Positions 1,947-56,475 of a DNA stretch of 64,000 nucleotides are shown here, in pieces. Origin of the DNA: Escherichia coli. Lineage in GTDB: Bacteria; Pseudomonadota; Gammaproteobacteria; Enterobacterales; Enterobacteriaceae. The DNA lies in the NCBI RefSeq assembly GCF_003334765.1, contig NZ_QOWT01000015.1. One strand, given 5' to 3'. Numbering within the stretch: the stretch's first letter is position 1; each line of letters opens with the position of its first letter. The translations under genes and the position numbers were made by a program. The notes below the pieces were generated by a model. The model was not told where the DNA came from. It saw only the letters and a list, made by a program, of their open reading frames with translations, and made no database searches.

Positions 1947-3269
1947 ATGCAAGCCTATTTTGACCAGCTCGATCGCGTTCGTTATGAAGGCTCAAAATCC
2001 TCAAACCCGTTAGCATTCCGTCACTACAATCCCGACGAACTGGTGTTGGGTAAGCGTATGGAAGAGCACTTGCGTTTTGCCGCCTGCTACTGGCACACCT
2101 TCTGCTGGAACGGGGCGGATATGTTTGGTGTGGGGGCGTTTAATCGTCCGTGGCAGCAGCCTGGTGAGGCACTGGCGTTGGCGAAGCGTAAAGCAGATGT
2201 CGCATTTGAGTTTTTCCACAAGTTACATGTGCCATTTTATTGCTTCCACGATGTGGATGTTTCCCCTGAGGGCGCGTCGTTAAAAGAGTACATCAATAAT
2301 TTTGCGCAAATGGTTGATGTCCTGGCAGGCAAGCAAGAAGAGAGCGGCGTGAAGCTGCTGTGGGGAACCGCCAACTGCTTTACAAACCCTCGCTACGGCG
2401 CGGGTGCGGCGACGAACCCAGATCCTGAAGTCTTCAGCTGGGCGGCAACGCAAGTTGTTACAGCGATGGAAGCAACCCATAAATTGGGCGGTGAAAACTA
2501 TGTCCTGTGGGGCGGTCGTGAAGGTTACGAAACGCTGTTAAATACCGACTTGCGTCAGGAGCGTGAACAACTGGGCCGCTTTATGCAGATGGTGGTTGAG
2601 CATAAACATAAAATCGGTTTCCAGGGCACGTTGCTTATCGAACCGAAACCGCAAGAACCGACCAAACATCAATATGATTACGATGCCGCGACGGTCTATG
2701 GCTTCCTGAAACAGTTTGGTCTGGAAAAAGAGATTAAACTGAACATTGAAGCTAACCACGCGACGCTGGCAGGTCACTCTTTCCATCATGAAATAGCCAC
2801 CGCCATTGCGCTTGGCCTGTTCGGTTCTGTCGACGCCAACCGTGGCGATGCGCAACTGGGCTGGGACACCGACCAGTTCCCGAACAGTGTGGAAGAGAAT
2901 GCGCTGGTGATGTATGAAATTCTCAAAGCAGGCGGTTTCACCACCGGTGGTCTGAACTTCGATGCCAAAGTACGTCGTCAAAGTACTGATAAATATGATC
3001 TGTTTTACGGTCATATCGGCGCGATGGATACGATGGCACTGGCGCTGAAAATTGCAGCGCGCATGATTGAAGATGGCGAGCTGGATAAACGCATCGCGCA
3101 GCGTTATTCCGGCTGGAATAGCGAATTGGGCCAGCAAATCCTGAAAGGCCAAATGTCACTGGCAGATTTAGCCAAATATGCTCAGGAACATCATTTGTCT
3201 CCGGTGCATCAGAGTGGTCGCCAGGAACAACTGGAAAATCTGGTAAACCATTATCTGTTCGACAAATAA
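1947..3269 (+). CDS. xylA: Xylose isomerase (440 aa)
   Basis: ORF track 1935..3269; protein [16 protein letters not shown]... with conserved xylose isomerase sequence throughout; start placed at the second ATG, which has a GGAG SD 7 nt upstream. Confidence 0.95.
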
Positions 3270-3340
3270 CGGCTAACTGTGCAGTCCGTTGGCCCGGTTA
3301 TCGGTAGCGATACCGGGCATTTTTTTAAGGAACGATCGAT

Positions 3341-4795
3341 ATGTATATCGGGATAGATCTTGGCACCTCGGGCGTAAAAGTTATTTTGCTCAACGAGCAG
3401 GGTGAGGTGGTTGCTGCGCAAACGGAAAAGCTGACCGTTTCGCGCCCGCATCCACTCTGGTCGGAACAAGACCCGGAACAGTGGTGGCAGGCAACTGATC
3501 GCGCAATGAAAGCTCTGGGCGATCAGCATTCTCTGCAGGACGTTAAAGCATTGGGTATTGCCGGCCAGATGCACGGAGCAACCTTGCTGGATGCTCAGCA
3601 ACGGGTGTTACGCCCTGCCATTTTGTGGAACGACGGGCGCTGTGCGCAAGAGTGCACTTTGCTGGAAGCGCGAGTTCCGCAATCGCGGGTGATTACCGGC
3701 AACCTGATGATGCCCGGATTTACTGCGCCTAAATTGCTATGGGTTCAGCGGCATGAGCCGGAGATATTCCGTCAAATCGACAAAGTATTATTACCGAAAG
3801 ATTACTTGCGTCTGCGTATGACGGGGGAGTTTGCCAGCGATATGTCTGACGCAGCTGGCACCATGTGGCTGGATGTCGCAAAGCGTGACTGGAGTGACGT
3901 CATGCTGCAGGCTTGCGACTTATCTCGTGACCAGATGCCCGCATTATACGAAGGCAGCGAAATTACTGGTGCTTTGTTACCTGAAGTTGCGAAAGCGTGG
4001 GGTATGGCGACGGTGCCAGTTGTCGCAGGCGGTGGCGACAATGCAGCTGGTGCAGTTGGTGTGGGAATGGTTGATGCTAATCAGGCAATGTTATCGCTGG
4101 GGACGTCGGGGGTCTATTTTGCTGTCAGCGAAGGGTTCTTAAGCAAGCCAGAAAGCGCCGTACATAGCTTTTGCCATGCGCTACCGCAACGTTGGCATTT
4201 AATGTCTGTGATGCTGAGTGCAGCGTCGTGTCTGGATTGGGCCGCGAAATTAACCGGCCTGAGCAATGTCCCAGCTTTAATCGCTGCAGCTCAACAGGCT
4301 GATGAAAGTGCCGAGCCAGTTTGGTTTCTGCCTTATCTTTCCGGCGAGCGTACGCCACACAATAATCCCCAGGCGAAGGGGGTTTTCTTTGGTTTGACTC
4401 ATCAACATGGCCCCAATGAACTGGCGCGAGCAGTGCTGGAAGGCGTGGGTTATGCGCTGGCAGATGGCATGGATGTCGTGCATGCCTGCGGTATTAAACC
4501 GCAAAGTGTTACGTTGATTGGGGGCGGGGCGCGTAGTGAGTACTGGCGTCAGATGCTGGCGGATATCAGCGGTCAGCAGCTCGATTACCGTACGGGGGGG
4601 GATGTGGGGCCAGCACTGGGCGCAGCAAGGCTGGCGCAGATCGCGGCGAATCCAGAGAAATCGCTCATTGAATTGTTGCCGCAACTACCGTTAGAACAGT
4701 CGCATCTACCAGATGCGCAGCGTTATGCCGCTTATCAGCCACGACGAGAAACGTTCCGTCGCCTCTATCAGCAACTTCTGCCATTAATGGCGTAA
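3341..4795 (+). CDS. xylB: Xylulokinase (484 aa)
   Basis: ORF track; MYIGIDLGTSGVKVILL... FGGY-family sugar kinase N-terminus; immediately downstream of xylA. Confidence 0.95.
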   Translation: MYIGIDLGTSGVKVILLNEQGEVVAAQTEKLTVSRPHPLWSEQDPEQWWQATDRAMKALGDQHSLQDVKALGIAGQMHGATLLDAQQRVLRPAILWNDGRCAQECTLLEARVPQSRVITGNLMMPGFTAPKLLWVQRHEPEIFRQIDKVLLPKDYLRLRMTGEFASDMSDAAGTMWLDVAKRDWSDVMLQACDLSRDQMPALYEGSEITGALLPEVAKAWGMATVPVVAGGGDNAAGAVGVGMVDANQAMLSLGTSGVYFAVSEGFLSKPESAVHSFCHALPQRWHLMSVMLSAASCLDWAAKLTGLSNVPALIAAAQQADESAEPVWFLPYLSGERTPHNNPQAKGVFFGLTHQHGPNELARAVLEGVGYALADGMDVVHACGIKPQSVTLIGGGARSEYWRQMLADISGQQLDYRTGGDVGPALGAARLAQIAANPEKSLIELLPQLPLEQSHLPDAQRYAAYQPRRETFRRLYQQLLPLMA

Positions 4796-4963
4796 ACGTT
4801 ATCCCCTGCCTGACCGGGTGGGGGATAATTCACATCTATATATCTCAGTAATTAATTAATATTTAGTATGAATTTATTCTGAAAATCATTTGTTAATGGC
4901 ATTTTTCAGTTTTGTCTTTCGTTGGTTACTCGTAATGTATCGCTGGTAGATATGGAGATCGTT

Positions 4964-5305
4964 ATGAAAACCTCAAAGACTGTGGCAAAACTATTATTTG
5001 TTGTCGGGGCGCTGGTTTATCTGGTTGGGCTATGGATCTCATGCCCATTGTTAAGTGGAAAAGGCTATTTTCTTGGCGTGTTAATGACAGCAACTTTTGG
5101 CAACTATGCATATCTTCGCGCAGAAAAACTCGGGCAACTGGATGATTTTTTTACCCATATCTGCCAGTTAGTTGCGTTAATCACTATCGGTCTCTTGTTT
5201 ATCGGTGTTTTAAACGCACCTATCAATACTTATGAAATGGTGATCTATCCCATCGCCTTTTTTGTCTGCTTGTTTGGTCAAATGCGTTTGTTTCGCTCGG
5301 CATGA
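4964..5305 (+). CDS. yiaB: Inner membrane protein YiaB (113 aa)
   Basis: ORF track 4922..5305; internal Met MKTSKTVAKLLFVVGALVYLVGLW... gives a 113 aa hydrophobic protein, a paralog of the next ORF (shared LxGLW and SxKGxY motifs). Confidence 0.8.
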   Translation: MKTSKTVAKLLFVVGALVYLVGLWISCPLLSGKGYFLGVLMTATFGNYAYLRAEKLGQLDDFFTHICQLVALITIGLLFIGVLNAPINTYEMVIYPIAFFVCLFGQMRLFRSA

Positions 5306-5350
5306 GCAACATAAAGCTCTTACATATTCAGGAATGAAAGGAATACTGTG

Positions 5351-5788
5351 ATGGACAACAAAATATCAACCTATTCACCGGCCTTTAGTATTGTGTCATG
5401 GATAGCTCTCGTTGGTGGTATCGTTACCTATCTGTTAGGGCTATGGAATGCAGAGATGCAGTTAAATGAAAAAGGATATTATTTTGCCGTACTGGTATTA
5501 GGACTGTTTTCTGCGGCGTCTTATCAAAAGACCGTTCGGGACAAGTATGAAGGCATACCGACCACTTCCATTTATTATATGACCTGCCTGACTGTCTTTA
5601 TTATCTCTGTTGCATTACTGATGGTAGGTCTGTGGAATGCGACATTATTACTCAGCGAAAAAGGTTTTTATGGACTGGCTTTCTTCTTAAGCTTGTTTGG
5701 TGCAGTAGCGGTGCAGAAAAATATTCGTGATGCCGGAATAAACCCACCAAAAGAAACACAGGTTACCCAGGAAGAATACAGCGAATAA
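5351..5788 (+). CDS. yiaA: Inner membrane protein YiaA (145 aa)
   Basis: ORF track 5348..5788 (GTG then ATG); [23 protein letters not shown]...; contains two internal repeats of the YiaAB motif. Confidence 0.85.
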
Positions 5789-5795
5789 CTCACGT

Positions 5796-5827
5796 AAGCC
5801 CGGTCAGTCCAATGTGACCGGGCTTTT
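5796..5827. terminator. Bidirectional intrinsic terminator between convergent yiaA and wecH
   Basis: Hairpin AAGCCCGGTCA...TGACCGGGCTT followed by a T-run; lies in the 41 bp gap between the convergent genes. Confidence 0.6.
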
Positions 5828-5829
5828 AC

Positions 5830-6825
5830 TTAACTCACTAATCTGTTTCTGTCGATTCGTTGTACCAGCATAGAAAGTAACAAACTCGCTGCCAACGTCG
5901 CGCAAAAGATCCAAATAATATCCAGTATTGGCCAATTTTTAAGCTCAATTCCCCGGGTGCGCAGCGCATGGATAATCAAGGCGTGGAATCCGTATATACC
6001 CAATGAATGGCGGGAGATTAAGCCAAGTCCGCGAATGGTACGCGTATCCAGCGTGTTTTTAACCAGAGTCAATAGCGCGATTGCGCAGATAAAAACCATC
6101 GGCCCACAGTAAAGATACCAGGTATCGGCAAAATTTCCGCGCCACTGCAATTCATATAATGTCCCGCGAGAGATAATAAAAACCCCCGTCGCAAACAGCG
6201 CGGCGCTCACCCACGACAGTGCTTTATGCTGTGTGTCCATCATCCCTATAGCGCGGCCCAACATGCCATACAGAATGTAGTAAAAAGTATCGCCATTGAT
6301 ATATAAGTTAATTGGCAGCCATTCAAAACCGTCAATTTTCTGCGGCACTGTGTTTGGGTTAGCGATAATGCCAATCACCGCCATTAGCACCAGCAACATT
6401 TTTCCGCCGACGTTCTTCACCTGAATCAGCGGTGAAACCAGATAAATCACCGCAATCGCGAAGAAAAACCACAAGTGGTAAAACACTGGCTTTTGCAGCA
6501 GGTTTTTCAGCGCTAACTCCATATTGATGGAGGTAAACAGCGCAATGTAGAGCAGTGCGATTGCGCTATAAAAAATCAGACATAAGCCGATACGCAAGAA
6601 ATGGCGCGGCTGGGCGCTGCGTTCGCCAAAAAAGAGATAGCCGGAAATCATGAAAAATAGCGGCACGCTGACACGAGAGGCAGAATTCAGAACATTGGCG
6701 ATATCCCATGTGACGGGGCTAACACTATGAGCATTGGTCACATACCAGGTAGTGGTGTGAATCATCACCACCATTAAACACGCTATCCCTCGCAGGTTAT
6801 CAATCCAGTAAATTTTGGGCTGCAT
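5830..6825 (-). CDS. wecH: O-acetyltransferase WecH (YiaH), acyltransferase-3 family membrane protein (331 aa)
   Basis: ORF track; multi-pass hydrophobic protein [25 protein letters not shown]... typical of the acyltransferase-3 family. Confidence 0.9.
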
Positions 6826-35275: not shown

Positions 35276-36028
35276 ATGGCCGTACTGGGATTGCAGGGGG
35301 TGCGGGGAGGCGTGGGGACAACAACCATCACCGCCGCATTAGCCTGGTCATTACAAATGTTGGGAGAAAATGTCCTGGTGGTCGATGCCTGCCCGGACAA
35401 CTTGTTGCGCCTGTCATTTAATGTTGATTTTACCCACCGTCAGGGCTGGGCCAGAGCGATGCTGGATGGCCAGGACTGGCGTGACGCTGGGTTGCGCTAC
35501 ACCTCGCAGCTCGATTTGCTGCCTTTTGGTCAGTTATCCATTGAAGAACAAGAAAATCCACAGCACTGGCAAACCCGGCTGAGCGATATTTGCTCCGGCT
35601 TACAGCAACTAAAAGCCAGCGGGCGTTACCAGTGGATTTTAATCGACTTACCGCGTGATGCCTCGCAGATAACCCACCAGCTGCTGAGTTTGTGCGATCA
35701 CTCGCTGGCAATCGTCAATGTGGATGCCAACTGCCATATCCGACTGCATCAGCAAGCGCTGCCGGATGGCGCACATATTTTGATTAATGACTTCCGTATT
35801 GGCAGTCAGGTTCAGGACGATATTTACCAGCTTTGGTTGCAAAGCCAGCGCCGATTACTGCCGATGCTCATTCATCGTGATGAAGCGATGGCTGAATGCC
35901 TGGCGGCTAAGCAACCAGTAGGTGAATATCGCAGTGATGCGCTGGCGGCTGAAGAGATACTGACGCTGGCGAACTGGTGCCTGTTGAACTACTCCGGGCT
36001 GAAAACGCCAGTCGGGAGTGCATCATGA
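35276..36028 (+). CDS. bcsQ: Cellulose biosynthesis ParA/MinD-like ATPase BcsQ, full length (250 aa)
   Basis: ORF track; MAVLGLQGVRGGVGTTTITAALAWSLQ...; deviant Walker A present; codon 6 is TTG (Leu) and the frame is open throughout. Confidence 0.93.
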   Translation: MAVLGLQGVRGGVGTTTITAALAWSLQMLGENVLVVDACPDNLLRLSFNVDFTHRQGWARAMLDGQDWRDAGLRYTSQLDLLPFGQLSIEEQENPQHWQTRLSDICSGLQQLKASGRYQWILIDLPRDASQITHQLLSLCDHSLAIVNVDANCHIRLHQQALPDGAHILINDFRIGSQVQDDIYQLWLQSQRRLLPMLIHRDEAMAECLAAKQPVGEYRSDALAAEEILTLANWCLLNYSGLKTPVGSAS

Positions 36029-40999: not shown

Positions 41000-42106
41000 A
41001 TGAATGTGTTGCGTAGTGGAATCGTGACGATGCTGCTGCTGGCTGCCTTTAGTGTTCAGGCAGCCTGTACCTGGCCTGCCTGGGAGCAGTTTAAAAAGGA
41101 TTACATCAGTCAGGAAGGGCGCGTCATCGACCCCAGCGACGCGCGCAAAATCACCACCTCCGAAGGGCAAAGTTACGGCATGTTCTCTGCCCTGGCGGCT
41201 AACGACCGTGCAGCTTTCGATAATATTCTCGACTGGACGCAGAACAATCTCGCTCAGGGTTCTTTAAAAGAACGTTTGCCCGCCTGGCTGTGGGGCAAGA
41301 AAGAGAACAGTAAGTGGGAAGTGCTGGACAGCAATTCGGCCTCCGATGGTGATGTCTGGATGGCCTGGTCGTTGCTGGAGGCGGGGCGTTTGTGGAAAGA
41401 GCAGCGTTATACCGACATCGGCAGCGCGTTGCTAAAACGTATCGCGCGGGAGGAAGTGGTGACGGTGCCTGGGCTGGGTTCCATGTTGTTACCGGGCAAA
41501 GTGGGTTTTGCTGAGGATAACAGCTGGCGTTTTAACCCCAGCTACCTGCCGCCGACGCTGGCGCAGTATTTCACCCGCTTTGGCGCGCCGTGGACCACGC
41601 TGCGCGAAACCAATCAACGTTTATTGCTGGAAACCGCCCCGAAAGGTTTTTCGCCAGACTGGGTGCGCTATGAGAAAGACAAAGGCTGGCAGCTAAAAGC
41701 CGAAAAAACATTGATCAGCAGCTACGACGCTATCCGCGTTTACATGTGGGTAGGCATGATGCCTGACAGCGATCCGCAAAAAGCGCGGATGCTCAACCGG
41801 TTTAAACCGATGGCGACATTCACTGAGAAAAACGGTTATCCGCCGGAAAAAGTGGATGTGGCTACGGGGAAAGCGCAGGGTAAAGGACCAGTCGGTTTTT
41901 CTGCCGCCATGCTGCCCTTTTTACAAAACCGCGATGCGCAGGCCGTTCAGCGCCAGCGCGTGGCCGATAACTTTCCCGGCAGCGATGCCTATTACAACTA
42001 TGTGCTGACCCTGTTTGGACAAGGCTGGGATCAACACCGTTTCCGCTTCTCGACAAAAGGTGAGTTATTACCTGACTGGGGCCAGGAATGCGCAAATTCA
42101 CACTAA
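41000..42106 (+). CDS. bcsZ: Endo-1,4-beta-glucanase BcsZ, GH8 (368 aa)
   Basis: ORF track 40994..42106; [31 protein letters not shown]...; GH8-like region SEGQSYGMF. Confidence 0.94.
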
Positions 42107-45100
42107 ACATATTCACGCTTTCCCTCGGTCTGGCCGTCATGCCGATGGTCGAGGCAGCACCAACCGCTCAGCAACAGTTGCTGGAGCAAGTTCGGTTAGG
42201 CGAAGCGACCCATCGTGAAGATCTGGTGCAACAGTCGTTATATCGGCTGGAACTTATTGATCCGAATAACCCGGACGTCGTTGCCGCCCGTTTCCGTTCT
42301 TTGTTACGTCAGGGCGATATTGATGGCGCGCAAAAACAGCTCGATCGGCTGTCGCAGTTAGCGCCGAGTTCAAATGCGTATAAATCGTCGCGGACTACGA
42401 TGCTACTTTCCACGCCGGATGGTCGTCAGGCACTGCAACAGGCACGATTGCAGGCGACGACCGGTCATGCAGAAGAAGCTGTGGCGAGTTACAACAAACT
42501 GTTCAACGGTGCGCCGCCGGAAGGTGACATTGCTGTCGAGTACTGGAGTACGGTGGCGAAAATTCCGGCTCGCCGTGGCGAAGCGATTAATCAGTTAAAA
42601 CGCATCAATGCGGATGCACCGGGCAATACGGGCCTGCAAAACAATCTGGCGCTATTGCTGTTTAGTAGCGATCGCCGTGACGAAGGTTTTGCCGTCCTGG
42701 AACAGATGGCAAAATCGAACGCCGGGCGCGAAGGGGCCTCTAAAATCTGGTACGGGCAGATTAAAGACATGCCCGTCAGTGATGCCAGTGTGTCGGCGCT
42801 GAAAAAATATCTCTCGATCTTTAGTGATGGCGATAGCGTGGCGGCTGCGCAATCGCAACTGGCAGAACAGCAAAAACAGCTGGCCGATCCTGCTTTCCGC
42901 GCTCGTGCGCAAGGTTTAGCGGCGGTGGACTCTGGTATGGCGGGTAAAGCCATTCCCGAACTACAACAGGCGGTGCGGGCGAACCCGAAAGACAGTGAAG
43001 CTCTGGGGGCGCTGGGCCAGGCGTATTCTCAGAAAGGCGATCGCGCCAATGCAGTGGCGAATCTGGAAAAAGCCCTCGCACTGGACCCGCACAGCAGCAA
43101 CAACGACAAATGGAACAGTCTGCTGAAAGTAAACCGCTACTGGCTGGCGATCCAGCAGGGCGATGCTGCGCTGAAAGCCAATAATCCTGACCGGGCAGAA
43201 CGCCTGTTCCAGCAGGCGCGTAATGTCGATAACACCGACAGTTATGCAGTGCTGGGGCTGGGCGATGTGGCGATGGCGCGAAAAGATTATCCCGCCGCCG
43301 AACGTTATTATCAGCAGACCTTGCGTATGGACAGCGGCAACACTAACGCCGTGCGCGGGCTGGCAAATATTTACCGCCAGCAATCGCCAGAAAAAGCTGA
43401 AGCGTTTATCGCCTCGCTCTCTGCCAGTCAGCGGCGTAGCATTGATGATATCGAACGCAGCCTGCAAAACGACCGTCTGGCACAGCAGGCAGAGGCACTG
43501 GAAAACCAGGGCAAATGGGCGCAGGCGGCAGCACTTCAGCGGCAACGACTGGCGCTGGACCCCGGCAGCGTATGGATTACTTACCGACTTTCGCAGGATC
43601 TCTGGCAGGCCGGACAACGCAGCCAGGCCGATACGTTAATGCGCAATCTGGCGCAGCAGAAGTCGAACGACCCGGAGCAGGTTTACGCTTACGGGCTGTA
43701 CCTCTCTGGTCATGACCAGGACAGAGCGGCGCTGGCGCATATCAACAGCCTGCCGCGTGCGCAGTGGAACAGCAATATTCAGGAGCTGGTTAATCGACTG
43801 CAAAGCGATCAGGTGCTGGAAACCGCTAACCGCCTGCGAGAAAGCGGCAAAGAGGCAGAAGCGGAAGCGATGCTGCGCCAGCAACCACCTTCCACGCGTA
43901 TTGACCTCACGCTGGCTGACTGGGCGCAACAACGACGTGATTACACCGCCGCCCGCGCTGCATATCAGAATGTCCTGACGCGGGAGCCAGCTAACGCCGA
44001 CGCCATTCTTGGTCTGACGGAAGTGGATATTGCTGCCGGTGACAAAGCGGCGGCACGTAGCCAGCTGGCGAAACTGCCCGCTACCGATAACGCCTCGCTG
44101 AACACACAGCGGCGCGTGGCGCTGGCACAGGCGCAGCTTGGCGATACCGCAGCAGCGCAGCGGACGTTTAATAAGTTGATCCCGCAGGCAAAATCTCAGC
44201 CACCGTCGATGGAAAGCGCGATGGTGCTGCGTGATGGTGCGAAGTTTGAAGCGCAGGCGGGCGATCCAACGCAGGCGCTGGAAACCTACAAAGACGCCAT
44301 GGTCGCATCCGGTGTGACTACGACGCGTCCGCAGGATAACGACACCTTTACCCGACTGACCCGTAACGACGAGAAAGATGACTGGCTGAAACGTGGCGTG
44401 CGCAGCGATGCGGCGGACCTCTATCGCCAGCAGGATCTTAACGTCACCCTTGAGCACGATTACTGGGGTTCGAGCGGCACCGGTGGTTACTCCGATCTGA
44501 AAGCGCACACTACCATGTTGCAGGTGGATGCGCCGTATTCTGACGGGCGGATGTTCTTTCGCAGTGATTTCGTCAATATGAACGTCGGCAGTTTCTCCAC
44601 TAATGCCGATGGCAAATGGGATGACAACTGGGGCACCTGTACATTACAGGACTGTAGCGGCAACCGCAGCCAGTCGGATTCCGGTGCCAGCGTGGCGGTC
44701 GGCTGGCGAAATGACGTCTGGAGCTGGGATATCGGTACCACGCCGATGGGCTTCAACGTGGTGGATGTGGTCGGCGGCATCAGTTACAGCGATGATATCG
44801 GGCCGCTGGGTTACACCGTTAACGCCCACCGTCGGCCCATCTCCAGTTCTTTGCTGGCCTTTGGTGGGCAAAAAGACTCCCCGAGCAATACCGGGAAAAA
44901 ATGGGGTGGCGTACGTGCCGACGGTGTGGGGCTAAGTCTGAGCTACGATAAAGGTGAAGCAAACGGCGTCTGGGCATCGCTTAGTGGCGACCAGTTAACC
45001 GGTAAAAATGTCGAAGATAACTGGCGCGTGCGCTGGATGACGGGCTATTACTATAAGGTCATTAACCAGAACAATCGCCGCGTCACAATCGGCCTGAACA

Positions 45101-45561
45101 ACATGATCTGGCATTACGACAAAGATCTGAGTGGCTACTCACTCGGTCAGGGCGGTTACTACAGTCCGCAGGAATACCTGTCGTTTGCCATACCGGTGAT
45201 GTGGCGGGAGCGCACGGAAAACTGGTCGTGGGAGCTGGGTGCGTCTGGCTCGTGGTCGCATTCACGCACCAAAACCATGCCGCGTTATCCGCTGATGAAT
45301 CTGATCCCGACCGACTGGCAGGAAGAAGCTGCGCGGCAATCCAACGATGGCGGCAGCAGTCAGGGCTTCGGCTACACGGCGCGGGCATTACTTGAACGAC
45401 GTGTTACTTCCAACTGGTTTGTTGGCACGGCAATTGATATCCAGCAGGCGAAAGATTACGCACCCAGCCATTTCCTGCTCTACGTACGTTATTCCGCCGC
45501 CGGATGGCAGGGTGACATGGATTTACCGCCGCAGCCGCTGATACCTTACGCCGACTGGTAA
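42088..45561 (+). CDS. bcsC: Cellulose synthase outer-membrane subunit BcsC, TPR-rich (1157 aa)
   Basis: ORF track; signal peptide, long TPR region, C-terminal beta-barrel; overlaps the bcsZ 3' end by 19 bp. Confidence 0.95.
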
Positions 45562-45642
45562 GTTTTCAGATAGCGCCTCTCTTAATGCCGCTGCGATCGG
45601 GTATACTCGGGCGGCAATCTGGGATTTCCGGGGGGAGACAAT

Positions 45643-47631
45643 TTGCGCGTAAGTCGCTCGTTAACAATCAAGCAGATGGCAATGGTGGCAGCCGTTGTCC
45701 TGGTGTTCGTTTTTATTTTTTGCACCGTTTTGCTGTTCCATCTGGTCCAGCAGAATCGCTATAACACGGCTACGCAACTGGAAAGCATTGCTCGCTCTGT
45801 CCGCGAACCCTTATCTTCAGCTATTTTGAAAGGCGATATTCCCGAAGCGGAAGCTATTCTTGCCAGCATTAAACCGGCAGGCGTGGTCAGCCGTGCCGAT
45901 GTAGTGCTGCCTAACCAGTTCCAGGCGCTGCGTAAAAGTTTTATTCCAGAGCGCCCGGTGCCGGTAATGGTTACTCGCCTGTTTGAGCTACCGGTTCAAA
46001 TCTCGCTGGGCGTTTACTCGCTCGAACGTCCGGCAAACCCGCAGCCAATTGCCTATCTGGTACTACAGGCGGATTCCTTCCGTATGTATAAGTTCGTGAT
46101 GAGCACCCTCTCAACGTTAGTGACCATTTACTTACTTTTGTCGCTTATCCTGACCGTCGCCATCAGCTGGTGCATTAACCGCCTGATTTTGCATCCGTTA
46201 CGCAATATTGCTCGCGAACTTAACGCCATCCCAGCCAAGGAGCTTGTTGGTCACCAACTGGCATTACCGCGTCTGCATCAGGACGATGAAATCGGTATGT
46301 TGGTGCGCAGTTACAACCTCAACCAGCAATTGCTGCAGCGCCATTATGAAGAACAGAACGAAAATGCGATGCGCTTCCCGGTGTCGGATTTGCCGAACAA
46401 AGCCTTGCTGATGGAGATGCTGGAGCAGGTTGTCGCGCGTAAACAAACCACCGCGCTGATGATCATCACCTGTGAAACCCTGCGTGATACTGCGGGCGTG
46501 CTGAAAGAGGCGCAACGAGAAATTCTGCTGCTGACGCTGGTGGAAAAACTCAAATCGGTACTGTCGCCACGTATGATCCTCGCGCAGATTAGCGGTTATG
46601 ACTTTGCTGTCATTGCCAACGGTGTACAGGAACCGTGGCACGCAATCACCTTAGGTCAGCAAGTGCTCACTATCATGAGCGAGCGCCTGCCGATTGAACG
46701 TATTCAACTCCGTCCGCACTGTAGCATTGGCGTGGCGATGTTCTACGGCGATCTCACCGCCGAACAGCTTTACAGTCGCGCTATTTCTGCGGCATTTACC
46801 GCTCGCCATAAAGGCAAGAATCAGATTCAGTTCTTTGATCCGCAGCAGATGGAAGCCGCCCAGAAGCGGTTGACGGAAGAGAGCGATATCCTTAATGCAC
46901 TGGAAAATCATCAGTTTGCTATTTGGTTACAGCCACAGGTCGAGATGACCAGCGGTAAACTGGTCAGTGCGGAAGTGTTACTGCGTATCCAGCAACCGGA
47001 TGGCAGTTGGGACCTGCCGGATGGCTTAATCGATCGCATTGAGTGCTGTGGGCTGATGGTTACCGTCGGTCACTGGGTGCTGGAAGAGTCCTGTCGATTG
47101 CTTGCAGCCTGGCAAGAGCGCGGCATTATGCTGCCCTTGTCGGTAAACCTCTCTGCGCTGCAACTGATGCACCCGAATATGGTGGCGGATATGCTGGAAC
47201 TGTTAACCCGCTATCGCATTCAGCCGGGAACACTGATTCTGGAAGTGACAGAAAGCCGACGTATTGACGACCCTCATGCTGCGGTGGCAATCCTCCGTCC
47301 GCTGCGCAATGCCGGAGTTCGGGTGGCGCTGGATGATTTCGGCATGGGCTACGCAGGGCTGCGTCAGCTGCAGCATATGAAATCGTTGCCAATCGACGTA
47401 CTGAAAATCGACAAAATGTTTGTTGAAGGCTTGCCGGGAGATAGCAGCATGATTGCTGCAATTATCATGCTGGCGCAGAGCCTGAACTTACAAATGATTG
47501 CCGAAGGCGTGGAGACTGAAGCACAACGCGACTGGCTGGCAAAAGCGGGCGTTGGTATTGCCCAGGGCTTCCTTTTTGCTCGCCCACTCCCTATTGAAAT
47601 CTTCGAAGAGAGTTACCTGGAAGAAAAGTAG
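45643..47631 (+). CDS. pdeK: c-di-GMP phosphodiesterase PdeK (YhjK): HAMP, degenerate GGDEF and EAL domains (up to 662 aa)
   Basis: ORF track; N-terminal TM/HAMP region; EAL-domain motifs in the C-terminus (...[10 protein letters not shown]..., ...[10 protein letters not shown]). Exact start uncertain. Confidence 0.88.
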
Positions 47632-47777
47632 CTACCCCAAACTGATTACAAAACTTTAAAAAGTGCTGGTTTGTGCGAGCCAGCTCAAACTTTTTAACCT
47701 TTTTGTTTCAATTATGATCCAGGTACATTTCTGTGATGTTGTCTGGGTGTTATTTTAAGGCCGCAGGTACCCCATAA

Positions 47778-49100
<1,323 letters not shown>

Positions 49101-52073: not shown

Positions 52074-52841
52074 ATGATAAGGCAGGTTATCCAGCGAATA
52101 AGCAACCCTGAAGCAAGCATCGAGAGCTTGCAGGAACGGCGTTTTTGGTTGCAGTGTGAGCGTGCTTACACCTGGCAGCCGATCTATCAAACATGCGGGC
52201 GGTTAATGGCCGTGGAGCTATTAACGGTGGTCACGCATCCCTTGAACCCTTCGCAACGCCTGCCGCCGGATCGCTATTTTACTGAAATCACCGTCAGCCA
52301 TCGGATGGAGGTTGTGAAAGAGCAGATTGATTTGCTGGCGCAAAAAGCCGACTTCTTTATAGAGCACGGCCTGCTGGCATCGGTCAATATTGATGGCCCT
52401 ACGCTCATCGCCCTGCGTCAGCAACCAAAAATCCTGCGCCAGATTGAGCGTCTTCCCTGGCTGCGTTTCGAACTGGTGGAGCATATCCGTCTGCCGAAAG
52501 ATTCAACCTTTGCCTCGATGTGTGAATTTGGCCCGCTGTGGCTGGATGATTTTGGTACCGGGATGGCAAATTTCTCTGCGCTAAGTGAAGTGCGTTATGA
52601 CTACATCAAAATCGCGCGAGAACTGTTTGTGATGCTGCGTCAGTCGCCGGAAGGACGCACACTCTTTTCTCAGCTTTTACATCTAATGAATCGCTATTGT
52701 CGCGGGGTGATTGTCGAGGGCGTAGAAACGCCGGAAGAGTGGCGTGATGTTCAGAACTCGCCCGCATTCGCCGCACAAGGCTGGTTTCTTTCACGCCCGG
52801 CACCGATAGAAACGCTGAATACGGCGGTTCTGGCGCTATAA
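52074..52841 (+). CDS. pdeH: c-di-GMP phosphodiesterase PdeH (YhjH), stand-alone EAL domain (255 aa)
   Basis: ORF track 52029..52841; start at MIRQVIQRISNPEASIESLQERRFWLQ...; EAL-domain motifs (ELLTVV, DDFGTG). Confidence 0.92.
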   Translation: MIRQVIQRISNPEASIESLQERRFWLQCERAYTWQPIYQTCGRLMAVELLTVVTHPLNPSQRLPPDRYFTEITVSHRMEVVKEQIDLLAQKADFFIEHGLLASVNIDGPTLIALRQQPKILRQIERLPWLRFELVEHIRLPKDSTFASMCEFGPLWLDDFGTGMANFSALSEVRYDYIKIARELFVMLRQSPEGRTLFSQLLHLMNRYCRGVIVEGVETPEEWRDVQNSPAFAAQGWFLSRPAPIETLNTAVLAL

Positions 52842-55152: not shown

Positions 55153-56475
55153 TTACAACGACTGATGTCGCGTCTCATGGGTCAGCAGCAGGGCGATTAA
55201 CGTCAAGCCAGCCATCGCCGCCAGATATAACCCCACCGCACCTAGCCCGTAGTTAGTCTGCAACCAGGCTGCGATATATGGCGCAACGGAAGCCCCGAGA
55301 ATCGACGCTACGTTGTAAGAGAACGATGCTCCGGTGTAACGCACTTCTGTCGGAAACAGCTCTGGTAACAGCGCACCCATTGGCCCGAAGGTCAGACCCA
55401 TCAGACTTAACCCCAGCAGCAGGAAGGCAAAAACCAGAATCGGGTTGCCAGAACCGAGCAGTGGGTTAAAGGCGAACAGCGCGAACAGGATGATCAGCGT
55501 GGTGATGATTACCATGCTTTTACGGCGACCAAAGGCATCAGCCAGTAATCCAGCGACTGGCACCATCACGCCAAAACCAATAACTGCCATCATCAACATC
55601 CACAACACTTCGTTACGCGGCAGGCCAAGCCCAACTGGCGCGGCGGCGGTACTAAAGGTCATAGAGTAGACCGTCATGATGTAAAACAGCGTATAGGTTG
55701 CCAGCATAATGAACGTACCCAGTACGGTTACGCGAACATGTTTGGTCAGCAGCGTACCCAGCGGGATCTTCACCTGTTTTTTCGCTTTAGCGACTTTCTC
55801 AAACACCGGCGACTCATGCAGCGACACGCGAACATACAGGCCGATAATGACCAGCACCGCCGAGAAGATAAATGGCACACGCCAGCCCCAGCTCATAAAC
55901 TGCTCGTCGGTCAGTAGCCAGGAAAGCAGCAAGAAAGTGCCATTGGCAAAGAAGAAGCCAATCGGTGCGCCCAGCTGCGGAAAGGAGCCATACAGTGCAC
56001 GTTTGCGCGGTGGGGCGTTTTCAGTCGCCAGCAGCGCCGCGCCGCCCCATTCACCGCCTAAGCCCAGACCCTGACCAAATCGAGCCAGCGCCAGCAGCAG
56101 CGGGGCGAAAATACCAATCGTGGCATAGCCCGGCAGCAGACCAATCACCACGGTCGAAATCCCCATCGTTAGCAACGAGGCGACCAGCGTCGCTTTACGC
56201 CCAACGCGATCGCCAAAATGACCAAAAACGGCAGAGCCAATGGGGCGCGCGACGAAGGCGATGGCGAAGGTGGCGAGCGACTGTAGCGTTGCTGCCGTAG
56301 GATCGCCCTGCGGGAAGAAGATATGCGGAAACACAATAACGGCCGCAGTGGCGTAAATGTAAAAGTCGAAGAACTCAATGGCTGTGCCAATGAGAGAGGC
56401 GACAAGGACTTTATTACGCGAGTTGATCGGCGTGTATTCTTGCTCGTGGTCGAGTGTTGTGGCTGTTGCTTGCAT
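55153..56475 (-). CDS. yhjE: MFS transporter YhjE (metabolite:H+ symporter family), 440 aa
   Basis: ORF track; 12 predicted TM segments; MQATATTLDHEQEYTPINSRNKVLVASLIGTAIEFFDFYIY... Confidence 0.9.
   Translation of the reverse strand: MQATATTLDHEQEYTPINSRNKVLVASLIGTAIEFFDFYIYATAAVIVFPHIFFPQGDPTAATLQSLATFAIAFVARPIGSAVFGHFGDRVGRKATLVASLLTMGISTVVIGLLPGYATIGIFAPLLLALARFGQGLGLGGEWGGAALLATENAPPRKRALYGSFPQLGAPIGFFFANGTFLLLSWLLTDEQFMSWGWRVPFIFSAVLVIIGLYVRVSLHESPVFEKVAKAKKQVKIPLGTLLTKHVRVTVLGTFIMLATYTLFYIMTVYSMTFSTAAAPVGLGLPRNEVLWMLMMAVIGFGVMVPVAGLLADAFGRRKSMVIITTLIILFALFAFNPLLGSGNPILVFAFLLLGLSLMGLTFGPMGALLPELFPTEVRYTGASFSYNVASILGASVAPYIAAWLQTNYGLGAVGLYLAAMAGLTLIALLLTHETRHQSL

Follow-up and report, generated by a model that had tools for sequence, protein, structure and literature searches.

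The closest described system is PdeK (YhjK, b3529) of Escherichia coli K-12, the cytoplasmic part of which is an active c-di-GMP phosphodiesterase in vitro (Richter et al. 2020, PMC7397504). The activity depends on E611, which is E624 in the numbering of the 662-residue protein used below, and on the EAL motif, the AAL and E611A mutants being inactive (PMC7397504). BcsB and DgcC have been identified as interaction partners, and PdeK antagonises DgcC as a local sink of c-di-GMP (PMC7397504). Deletion of pdeK has a weak cellulose phenotype in vivo, which is reproduced by active-site point mutants and which is dependent on DgcC, being gone when DgcC is absent (PMC7397504). HmsP of Yersinia pestis resembles PdeK in being a membrane-bound phosphodiesterase of the EAL type; it lowers c-di-GMP and inhibits an exopolysaccharide system that c-di-GMP activates, and its gene is transcribed from its own promoter, the one promoter mapped by primer extension (PMC4381331). 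In Salmonella Typhimurium, STM3615 (YhjK) is reported, in work cited in PMC13304067, to link the status of DsbA/DsbB to curli and biofilm formation.

Identity and domain architecture of PdeK

The window analysed here is a stretch of 64,000 nucleotides of E. coli DNA, and all features described below lie on its + strand. The open reading frame at 45643–47631 has 662 codons, with a TTG start and a TAG stop. It directly follows bcsC (42088–45561, with the TAA stop codon checked at 45559–45561), with which the bcsRQABZC cellulose operon ends according to the list of open reading frames and to the RefSeq annotation of the corresponding part of MG1655, and it precedes dctA, a synteny that is the same in E. 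coli K-12. In K-12 MG1655, as in approximately 5,424 of 5,426 complete E. coli genomes, this open reading frame has the annotation hmsP/pdeK and immediately follows bcsC, and PGAP uses the name hmsP for the gene in the window. Its product scores 781 bits against the NCBIfam HmsP equivalog NF008807 (cut-off 733 bits), with residues 2–659 aligned to profile positions 1–663 of 670, which places it within this family. The gene at 45643–47631 is pdeK (yhjK, the orthologue of Yersinia hmsP), coding for an inner-membrane c-di-GMP phosphodiesterase. The sequence-only reading, which had assigned a HAMP-GGDEF-EAL protein PdeK to this position directly after bcsC, is in agreement with both the annotation and the Pfam domains.

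The Pfam and hydropathy data give the order TM1, periplasmic GAPES3 domain, TM2, HAMP linker, degenerate GGDEF domain and EAL domain, which is the architecture of the family. TM1 covers residues ~14–35 (hydrophobic centre ~14–29) and TM2 residues ~148–175 (hydrophobic centre ~159–175), as seen from the hydropathy. The GAPES3 sensor comprises residues 36–155 (45748–46107; PF17154, 5.9e-46) and the HAMP linker residues 178–231 (46174–46335; PF00672, 3.5e-4). The periplasmic sensor and the two transmembrane helices were not mentioned in the sequence-only reading. When 80 orthologues are compared, GAPES3 is the most conserved domain, with a mean column conservation of 0.90 versus 0.82 for the EAL domain; this most constrained part of the protein is a pointer to the site where the signal acts.

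The GGDEF domain (residues 247–394; 46381–46824) is detected as a weak Pfam match (1e-10). When it is aligned with the GGDEF domain of PDB entry 5m3c, the motif position is occupied by SGYDF (residues 317–321; 46591–46605), a motif of PdeK that is also cited in PMC13320778. In the same alignment, SPRM is found instead of the RxxD I-site and TCETLR instead of DLDRFK at the DxDxFK position, such that the metal- and GTP-binding residues are lost. The features of an active diguanylate cyclase (GG(D/E)EF, RxxD and the DxD-FK and N-D residues) are therefore not present in PdeK, and GG(D/E)EF is found in 0 of 80 orthologues. Judged from these residues, the GGDEF domain of PdeK is degenerate and catalytically dead; its probable degeneracy had been proposed from the apparent lack of the motif, and SGYDF at the motif position and the missing RxxD I-site bear this out.

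The EAL domain (residues 415–648; 46885–47586; Pfam 3.5e-59) has the complete set of signature residues, being E444-V-L-x-R, N502, E534/E537, D564-D565, K588/D590, E621/E624 and Q641. These residues lie in the motifs EVLLR (444–448), SVNLS (500–504), LEVTES (533–538), DDFG (564–567), KIDK (588–591), EGVETE (621–626) and AQGF (640–643). The canonical EAL loop-6 motif is DFG(T/A)GYSS. In PdeK, this loop reads DFGMGYAG, the same deviation being conserved among the orthologues, and the published in vitro activity indicates that it is tolerated. All catalytic residues are conserved in 76 of the 80 orthologues, and in four of 80 the catalytic glutamate of the EAL motif is lost. This loss would fit with PdeK acting mainly as a non-catalytic scaffold or trigger, through its degenerate GGDEF domain and its membrane contacts, as would the interaction of this GGDEF domain with several diguanylate cyclases in two-hybrid assays (PMC5635695); a related alternative is that PdeK is a global rather than a local phosphodiesterase, and a raised c-di-GMP reporter signal has been described for a pdeK deletion in Shigella (preprint PMC13320778). 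However, active-site point mutants have the phenotype of the deletion and this phenotype is absent without DgcC (PMC7397504), and the EAL catalytic residues are all intact in E. coli and in the large majority of orthologues. Both forms of this alternative are considered very unlikely.

The preferred mode of action is that of a conditional local sink. GAPES3, positioned between the two transmembrane helices, would sense the signal, and the HAMP linker would couple this sensor to the dead GGDEF and the active EAL domains. As published, PdeK docks on two partners, the cellulose synthase (via BcsB) and the diguanylate cyclase DgcC, and the docked enzyme hydrolyzes the c-di-GMP that is made beside BcsA, resulting in less pEtN-cellulose. 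The periplasmic and membrane part probably keeps the enzyme off until the signal arrives, as suggested by the authors of PMC7397504, and this fits with how strongly the sensor is conserved among the orthologues compared here. Local control of the cellulose synthase, which had been suggested from the position of the gene, is supported, and it is already in print (active phosphodiesterase, contact with BcsB and DgcC, local sink; PMC7397504); this role beside the synthase is known and is an ordinary finding. PdeK, DgcC and BcsB are a textbook case of local c-di-GMP signaling, and it is for this reason that the gene matters.

The bcsC–pdeK spacer and the transcription of pdeK

The spacer between bcsC and pdeK is 81 nt long (45562–45642), one more than the 80 bp given previously; the accompanying remark that no terminator hairpin is obvious in it stands, as a search of the gap with the terminator consensus gave no intrinsic terminator. 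The inverted repeat TGCCGC/GCGGCA (45586–45616) can fold into a hairpin of −16.1 kcal/mol (z = −1.8), and it is followed by AATCTGGGATTT, which is not a U-tract. Across species, 56% of the cells are paired in this hairpin, compared with 24–43% in controls with a slid partner, and compensatory changes are few. With no U-tract it is not an intrinsic terminator, and with pairing that is modestly above the slid controls it is a doubtful candidate for a conserved RNA structure; a scan of 45300–47900 gave no Rfam match at E ≤ 1.

What is conserved in the spacer is a block of promoter-like geometry. The repeat flanks the −10-like hexamer TATACT (45602–45607), which is contained in a near-palindrome, CGGGTATACTCG (45598–45609), and precedes the TTG start by 35 nt. 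In 77 of 81 enterobacterial loci, TATACT or TATAAT is found at a distance of 34–95 nt before the start codon. The orthologue alignment also shows a conserved block, TCTCTTAA (45578–45585), which occupies the −35 position and is separated from TATACT by 16 bp. When 50 distinct orthologous sequences are compared with TATACT as the anchor, the conservation of each position of TCTCTTAA is 68–92%; around the hexamer, A(−6) and C(+6) never vary, and the values for T(−5), G(−1) and G(+8) are 96–98%. In approximately 20 loci, pdeK and the spacer block are both present although the gene upstream is not bcsC; at such loci the upstream neighbor is, for example, a divergent methionine gamma-lyase (Citrobacter youngae), a divergent pgaA (Atlantibacter) or murB-birA (Leclercia). 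In Salmonella arizonae and in some Citrobacter species, a REP-like insert lies between bcsC and the block.

Since the promoter-like block persists at loci that have another gene in place of bcsC, pdeK probably forms a transcription unit of its own, expressed mainly from its own promoter. In this proposal, transcription would be driven by the spacer block, with TCTCTTAA at −35 and TATACT at −10 within the near-palindrome. As a strict scan for sigma-70 consensus promoters gave none in 45000–48200, the proposal is an argument from conservation. TCTCTTAA agrees with TTGACA at 2 of 6 positions and does not resemble the −35 consensus, so that the putative promoter would need sigma-S or an activator. 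Alternatively, the conserved block may function as an operator or as a 5′-UTR element. A unit of its own is further supported by the fixed spacing at which the block is conserved, by the primer-extension-mapped promoter of the orthologue hmsP in Y. pestis (PMC4381331) and by the end of the gene, where a hairpin after the pdeK stop codon (47656–47697; −16.2 kcal/mol, z = −2.96) is followed by T-rich sequence. This hairpin overlaps a conserved CRP-like sequence, TGTGCGAGCCAGCTCA (47672–47687), in the pdeK–dctA spacer, and the 3′ part of this region is conserved across genera. There is no entry for yhjK, pdeK or bcsC in the supplementary data of the SMRT-Cappable-seq, Adams 2021, two Salmonella dRNA-seq and Kim 2012 studies.

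In an alternative reading, pdeK would in effect be a seventh bcs gene, with most of its transcripts starting at the bcsR promoter and reading through from bcsC. This reading draws on the short gap between two genes on the same strand, on the adjacency of bcsC and pdeK in most Enterobacteriaceae sampled, and on the missing terminator (the spacer hairpin has no U-tract), which makes a bcs–pdeK read-through transcript plausible. Against this, the gap varies from 80 to 613 nt among species, in some with the REP-like inserts, the −10-like hexamer is conserved within it, and there are the loci with pdeK and the block and with no bcsC upstream; the literature also places pdeK adjoining or downstream of the bcs operon and not inside it. 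Read-through as the main route is unlikely, although read-through from bcsC may add to pdeK expression, since no intrinsic terminator intervenes.

A route through bcsC itself has also been considered. The sense strand of bcsC carries a sigma-54-type motif, TTGGCACGGCAATTGAT (45422–45438), ~190–200 nt upstream of pdeK, which was published as the weak sigma-54 ChIP-seq site IS44 (FAT = 1; PMC4591121) and was predicted independently by computation (PMC3162934). The motif, TGGCAC-N5-TTGA in the 3′ end of bcsC, has the −24 element TGGCAC, with TTGA instead of TTGC as the −12 element. Transcription of pdeK from this site, with a 5′ UTR of ~190 nt, would have a parallel in other intragenic sigma-54 sites that have been validated as promoters of the downstream gene. 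However, the ChIP peak is at the threshold, the −12 element deviates, no enhancer-binding protein is known for this site, and those bases of the motif that fall on third codon positions differ freely from one orthologue to the next, also inside the genus Escherichia. Most other Escherichia representatives have CGGCAC, and in other genera the motif is lost altogether. Conservation therefore does not extend beyond the coding constraint, and a sigma-54 promoter is rejected as the main route to pdeK and is regarded as extremely improbable.

The own-promoter reading can be extended. A(−6), T(−5), G(−1), C(+6) and G(+8) vary little or not at all, a stronger constraint than a simple promoter would require. 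A tentative and rather unlikely reading is that the spacer acts as a control region of deep conservation, as opposed to neutral sequence, where an uncharacterised regulator or an unusual sigma factor or activator would set PdeK levels independently of bcs. The consensus sequences of PmrA, RcsB, CsgD, MlrA and LexA, compared by eye with the conserved block, gave no convincing fit. If such a control region exists, then, together with the weak TTG start and the cytoplasmic tail of 13 residues, the dosage and the N-terminus of PdeK would be tightly controlled. Whichever its nature, the probable own promoter or operator provides a handle on the conditions and on the regulator that switch the sink on.

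Start codon and N-terminus

The TTG start is invariant in 81 of 81 loci. It is preceded, at a distance of 5 nt, by the Shine-Dalgarno sequence GGAG (45634–45637), which is found upstream of the start in almost all of the 81 loci, with GGGAAG in one of them (L039). In codons 2–13 the amino acids are invariant among the orthologues and the third positions are freely variable, with synonymous changes only. The invariance of TTG and of the first 13 residues in all orthologues supports the 662-residue protein over the 649-residue numbering of the literature, from which it is offset by 13. Translation from the invariant TTG would be of low efficiency and would yield the 662-residue PdeK. The choice of start codon affects residue numbering and construct design, as constructs based on the 649-residue protein would lack 13 invariant residues. 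Taken together, the explanation that is best in agreement with the data, and which we hold to be likely, is that PdeK is a membrane phosphodiesterase acting as a local sink, expressed from its own promoter in the spacer and translated from a TTG start.

Comparison with related systems

The window is from a non-K-12 E. coli: a comparison of 26.4 kb with MG1655 gives 8 differing positions, and over 17 kb there is 100% identity to numerous natural isolates. There are zero differences from MG1655 in pdeK and the spacer DNA, so that the K-12 protein shares its gene, spacer, neighbors (bcsC and dctA), domains and published function (PMC7397504) with the PdeK described here. The two strains differ at codon 6 of bcsQ, which is TTG (intact) in the window and TAG in K-12.

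Salmonella Typhimurium STM3615 is the orthologue of PdeK. In S. enterica subsp. arizonae (L013, the one Salmonella sampled), the protein is 84% identical, and the neighbors, the TTG start and the spacer block are shared; the bcsC–yhjK gap is 159 nt with a REP-like insert, compared with 81 nt here. Y. pestis HmsP belongs to the same NCBIfam equivalog family as PdeK, and the targets differ, being the Hms system (poly-GlcNAc, PgaABCD-like) for HmsP and cellulose for PdeK. The Atlantibacter orthologue, divergent to pgaA, hints that this family can pair with either polysaccharide system.

LapD of Pseudomonas fluorescens has the same layout of a transmembrane helix, periplasmic domain, second transmembrane helix, HAMP, degenerate GGDEF and EAL. 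Its EAL domain lacks activity and serves as a receptor to which c-di-GMP binds. PdeK matches the LapD NCBIfam profile weakly over its full length (121 bits, far under the cut-off of 1020) and, unlike LapD, it has kept all catalytic residues and is active; its periplasmic domain is GAPES3, which differs from that of LapD.

Over the GGDEF-EAL tandem, the best structure matches are MucR (5m3c) and MorA (4rnh) of P. aeruginosa and DosP of E. coli, with E-values of 2e-66 to 7e-52. These proteins share the EAL catalytic motifs with PdeK. They differ from it in that MucR, MorA and DosP have canonical or near-canonical GGDEF motifs and other sensor modules, whereas PdeK has SGYDF and a GAPES3-HAMP input.

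Identity and setting of pdeK

The open reading frame at 45643-47631 (+), which has 662 codons and a TTG start, is the same as the one annotated as hmsP in K-12 MG1655, where it follows bcsR-bcsQ-bcsA-bcsB-bcsZ-bcsC and is itself followed by dctA. Its product belongs to the NCBIfam HmsP equivalog family (781 bits, with a cut-off of 733). This agrees with the sequence-only reading, in which the gene was named pdeK and placed directly downstream of bcsC; this adjacency stands, but the gap, given there as 80 bp, is 81 nt, as counted from the bcsC stop codon at 45559-45561. Of 5,426 complete E. coli genomes, 5,424 match a 2.4-kb query around pdeK with a coverage of 80% or more, many of them at 100%. 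In the pig isolate E. coli HNSQ2209 (genome match H1, NZ_CP137737.1, 252533-255997), an IS5-family transposase interrupts the pdeK region, which shows that natural inactivation of pdeK occasionally occurs.

There are 8 differences between the window and MG1655 over 26.4 kb, all outside pdeK and the spacer, and many natural isolates are 100% identical to the window over 17 kb. Codon 6 of bcsQ (codons 1-6, 35276-35293) is TTG (Leu) instead of the TAG of MG1655 (SNP at 35292), which identifies the source as an E. coli other than K-12, with bcsQ intact. The window should encode full-length BcsQ, and on this expectation the source strain is probably cellulose-proficient. The gene of a second EAL phosphodiesterase, pdeH/yhjH, is found at 52074-52841, about 4.4 kb downstream of pdeK.

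Domains, active sites and N terminus of PdeK

The Pfam matches of PdeK are GAPES3 (residues 36-155, E = 5.9e-46), bounded on each side by a hydrophobic segment in the hydropathy profile, HAMP (residues 178-231, E = 3.5e-4), a weakly matching GGDEF domain (residues 247-394, E = 1.1e-10) and EAL (residues 415-648, E = 3.5e-59). When aligned with the GGDEF-EAL tandem of PDB entry 5m3c, PdeK has SGYDF (317-321) at the position of the GGDEF motif, SPRM at the position of the RxxD I-site and TCETLR in place of the DLDRFK metal/substrate stretch. Judged from these residues, the GGDEF domain is degenerate, as the sequence-only reading had proposed. Comparison was made with 80 orthologous loci from Enterobacteriaceae species representatives (65-97% protein identity; 81 loci with that of K-12); a canonical GGDEF motif is present in none of the 80 orthologues, which indicates an ancestral degeneracy.

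The EAL signature is complete (EVLLR 444-448, N502, E534/E537, DD 564-565, K588/D590, EGVE 621-624 and Q641) and its residues are kept in 76 of the 80 orthologues; loop 6 is DFGMGYAG, unlike the canonical DFG(T/A)GYSS. The catalytic glutamate of the EAL motif is lost at four orthologous loci (L056, L064, L076 and L077, listed as Kosakonia arachidis, Enterobacter sp. JUb54, Enterobacter sp. Bisph1 and Klebsiella indica), for which the altered motifs KALLR, KVLLR, HALLR and KVHLR are listed; the L076 protein also lacks the ExxE, KxD and EGVE residues. It is possible that PdeK of these four species is doubly degenerate.

The layout GAPES3-HAMP-GGDEF(degenerate)-EAL is also that of Richter et al. 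2020 (PMC7397504), who found that the cytoplasmic part of PdeK is an active phosphodiesterase requiring the EAL motif and E611, that BcsB is contacted by both PdeK and DgcC, which also contact each other, and that deletion of pdeK weakly increases wrinkling, an effect that is gone without DgcC. The same authors note that pdeK adjoins the cellulose operon in many species, and they propose that the enzyme is held in check by its membrane/periplasmic part, pending an unknown signal. SGYDF also appears in a 2026 preprint (PMC13320778). The identity of PdeK, its degenerate GGDEF domain and the idea of local control of cellulose synthesis are right but already published.

The TTG start is present in 81/81 loci, and nearly all loci have a GGAG Shine-Dalgarno sequence 5-7 nt ahead of it. 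In 75 distinct sequences, codons 2-13 are invariant as amino acids and variable at third positions, showing that this region is translated and that PdeK has 662 residues; across the 80 orthologues the N-terminal 13 residues (codons 1-13, 45643-45681) are 100% invariant, with synonymous changes only. Richter et al. number PdeK as a protein of 649 residues (E431/V432, E611, fragment 148-649; PMC7397504), an offset of 13 (E444/V445 and E624 here); the published numbering begins at codon 14 and leaves out the invariant tail. Of the domains, the periplasmic GAPES3 is the most strongly conserved (mean column conservation 0.90, compared with 0.82 for EAL; 80 orthologues). Small, testable additions made here are the invariance of the TTG start and of the N-terminal tail, the strong constraint on the periplasmic sensor and a conserved block in the spacer.

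The bcsC-pdeK spacer and flanking elements

No intrinsic terminator is detected between bcsC and pdeK by a consensus scan, in line with the earlier impression that none was obvious, and the spacer hairpin (TGCCGC/GCGGCA, 45586-45616, -16.1 kcal/mol, z = -1.8) has no U-tract; read-through from bcsC may contribute to pdeK transcription. No strict sigma-70 consensus site is found in 45000-48200, and the spacer has no Rfam match. It contains the block TCTCTTAA (45578-45585) upstream of a -10-like hexamer, TATACT (45602-45607), inside the near-palindrome CGGGTATACTCG. The hairpin arms flanking this hexamer are paired in 56% of cells, compared with 24-43% after a shift of the partner by 1-3 positions, and compensatory changes are few. 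The hairpin is strong in Escherichia, Citrobacter amalonaticus-like species and Pseudescherichia (a perfect 12-bp stem) and weak elsewhere; it may be an operator, an RNA 3'-end structure or a chance feature.

Downstream of pdeK, a hairpin with a T-rich tail (47656-47697, z = -2.96) overlaps the conserved CRP-like TGTGCGAGCCAGCTCA of the dctA upstream region (47672-47687); its 3' part is conserved across genera and its 5' arm differs.

Sigma-54 control of yhjK (pdeK) was predicted by Francke et al. 2011 (PMC3162934), and the ChIP-seq site IS44, TTGGCACGGCAATTGAT, lies inside bcsC, oriented towards yhjK, with occupancy at threshold (FAT = 1; Bonocora et al. 2015, PMC4591121). In the window this motif is at 45422-45438. 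Its -12 element is TTGA, and those of its bases that fall on codon third positions vary freely among orthologues; most other Escherichia representatives have CGGCAC there, and the motif is lost in other genera. Given the TTGA, the threshold occupancy and the lack of conservation, IS44 is regarded as a fortuitous weak binding site. A second TGGCAC-N5-TTGM match, TGGCACAGCCATTGA, lies inside yhjE (56375-56389, -); finding two matches in 64 kb is compatible with chance (two or more in 10 of 100 shuffles).

A promoter-like block retained across Enterobacteriaceae

The pdeK-dctA linkage is essentially universal among the sampled loci. Directly upstream of pdeK, bcsC is found in most loci, with a gap of 80 to 613 nt; it is missing there in about 20, for example in Citrobacter youngae (divergent methionine gamma-lyase and Ser/Thr transporter genes), Leclercia (murB-birA) and Atlantibacter (divergent pgaA, for the poly-GlcNAc export porin), and in these three the conserved block is retained. 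In 77/81 loci the start is preceded, at a distance of 34-95 nt, by TATACT or, in the Klebsiella, Kluyvera and Pluralibacter clades, by TATAAT. When counted over 50 distinct TATACT-bearing sequences, the TCTCTTAA block is 68-92% conserved per position, at a fixed distance of 16 bp from TATACT; no variation is seen at A-6 and C+6, and conservation at T-5, G-1 and G+8 is 96-98%. REP-like inserts separate bcsC from this block in Salmonella arizonae and some Citrobacter. For hmsP, the pdeK orthologue of Y. pestis, primer extension mapped a single promoter (PMC4381331); no experimental start site of E. coli pdeK was found in the published transcriptome/start-site data searched. From the block, the loci without bcsC, the REP-like inserts, the hmsP promoter and the 3' hairpin, pdeK looks like a separate transcription unit, and this comparative evidence favours an independent promoter over co-transcription with bcs.

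Some loci differ in detail. At L009, L012, L013 and L030 (Citrobacter amalonaticus/sedlakii, Salmonella arizonae), the GC-rich palindromic REP-like insert, which lies between the bcsC stop and the promoter-like block, brings the gap to 92-164 nt. Enterobacter, Lelliottia and Leclercia loci (L020, L022, L026-L029, L031, L032, L043, L055, L073 and others) have about 25 nt inserted downstream of the -10-like hexamer and upstream of the Shine-Dalgarno sequence. Within the predicted 5' UTR this insert forms a perfect, GC-rich hairpin, such as GCACCAGG-N7-CCTGGTGC or TAGGGTAAC-N5-GTTACCCTA; the arms vary by genus, and E. coli has no such insert. Just downstream of the hexamer, L075, L079 and L080 (Cedecea, Buttiauxella) have TAAGAATAT(N)CC, which resembles an RcsB-box half-site and is absent from E. 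coli at that position. The loci with pdeK divergent to pgaA, and not downstream of bcsC, are L066, L069, L070 and L072 (about 2460-6000 of the locus), which are Atlantibacter and one record labelled C. freundii M-21. This arrangement recalls Yersinia, where HmsP controls the Pga-like Hms system.
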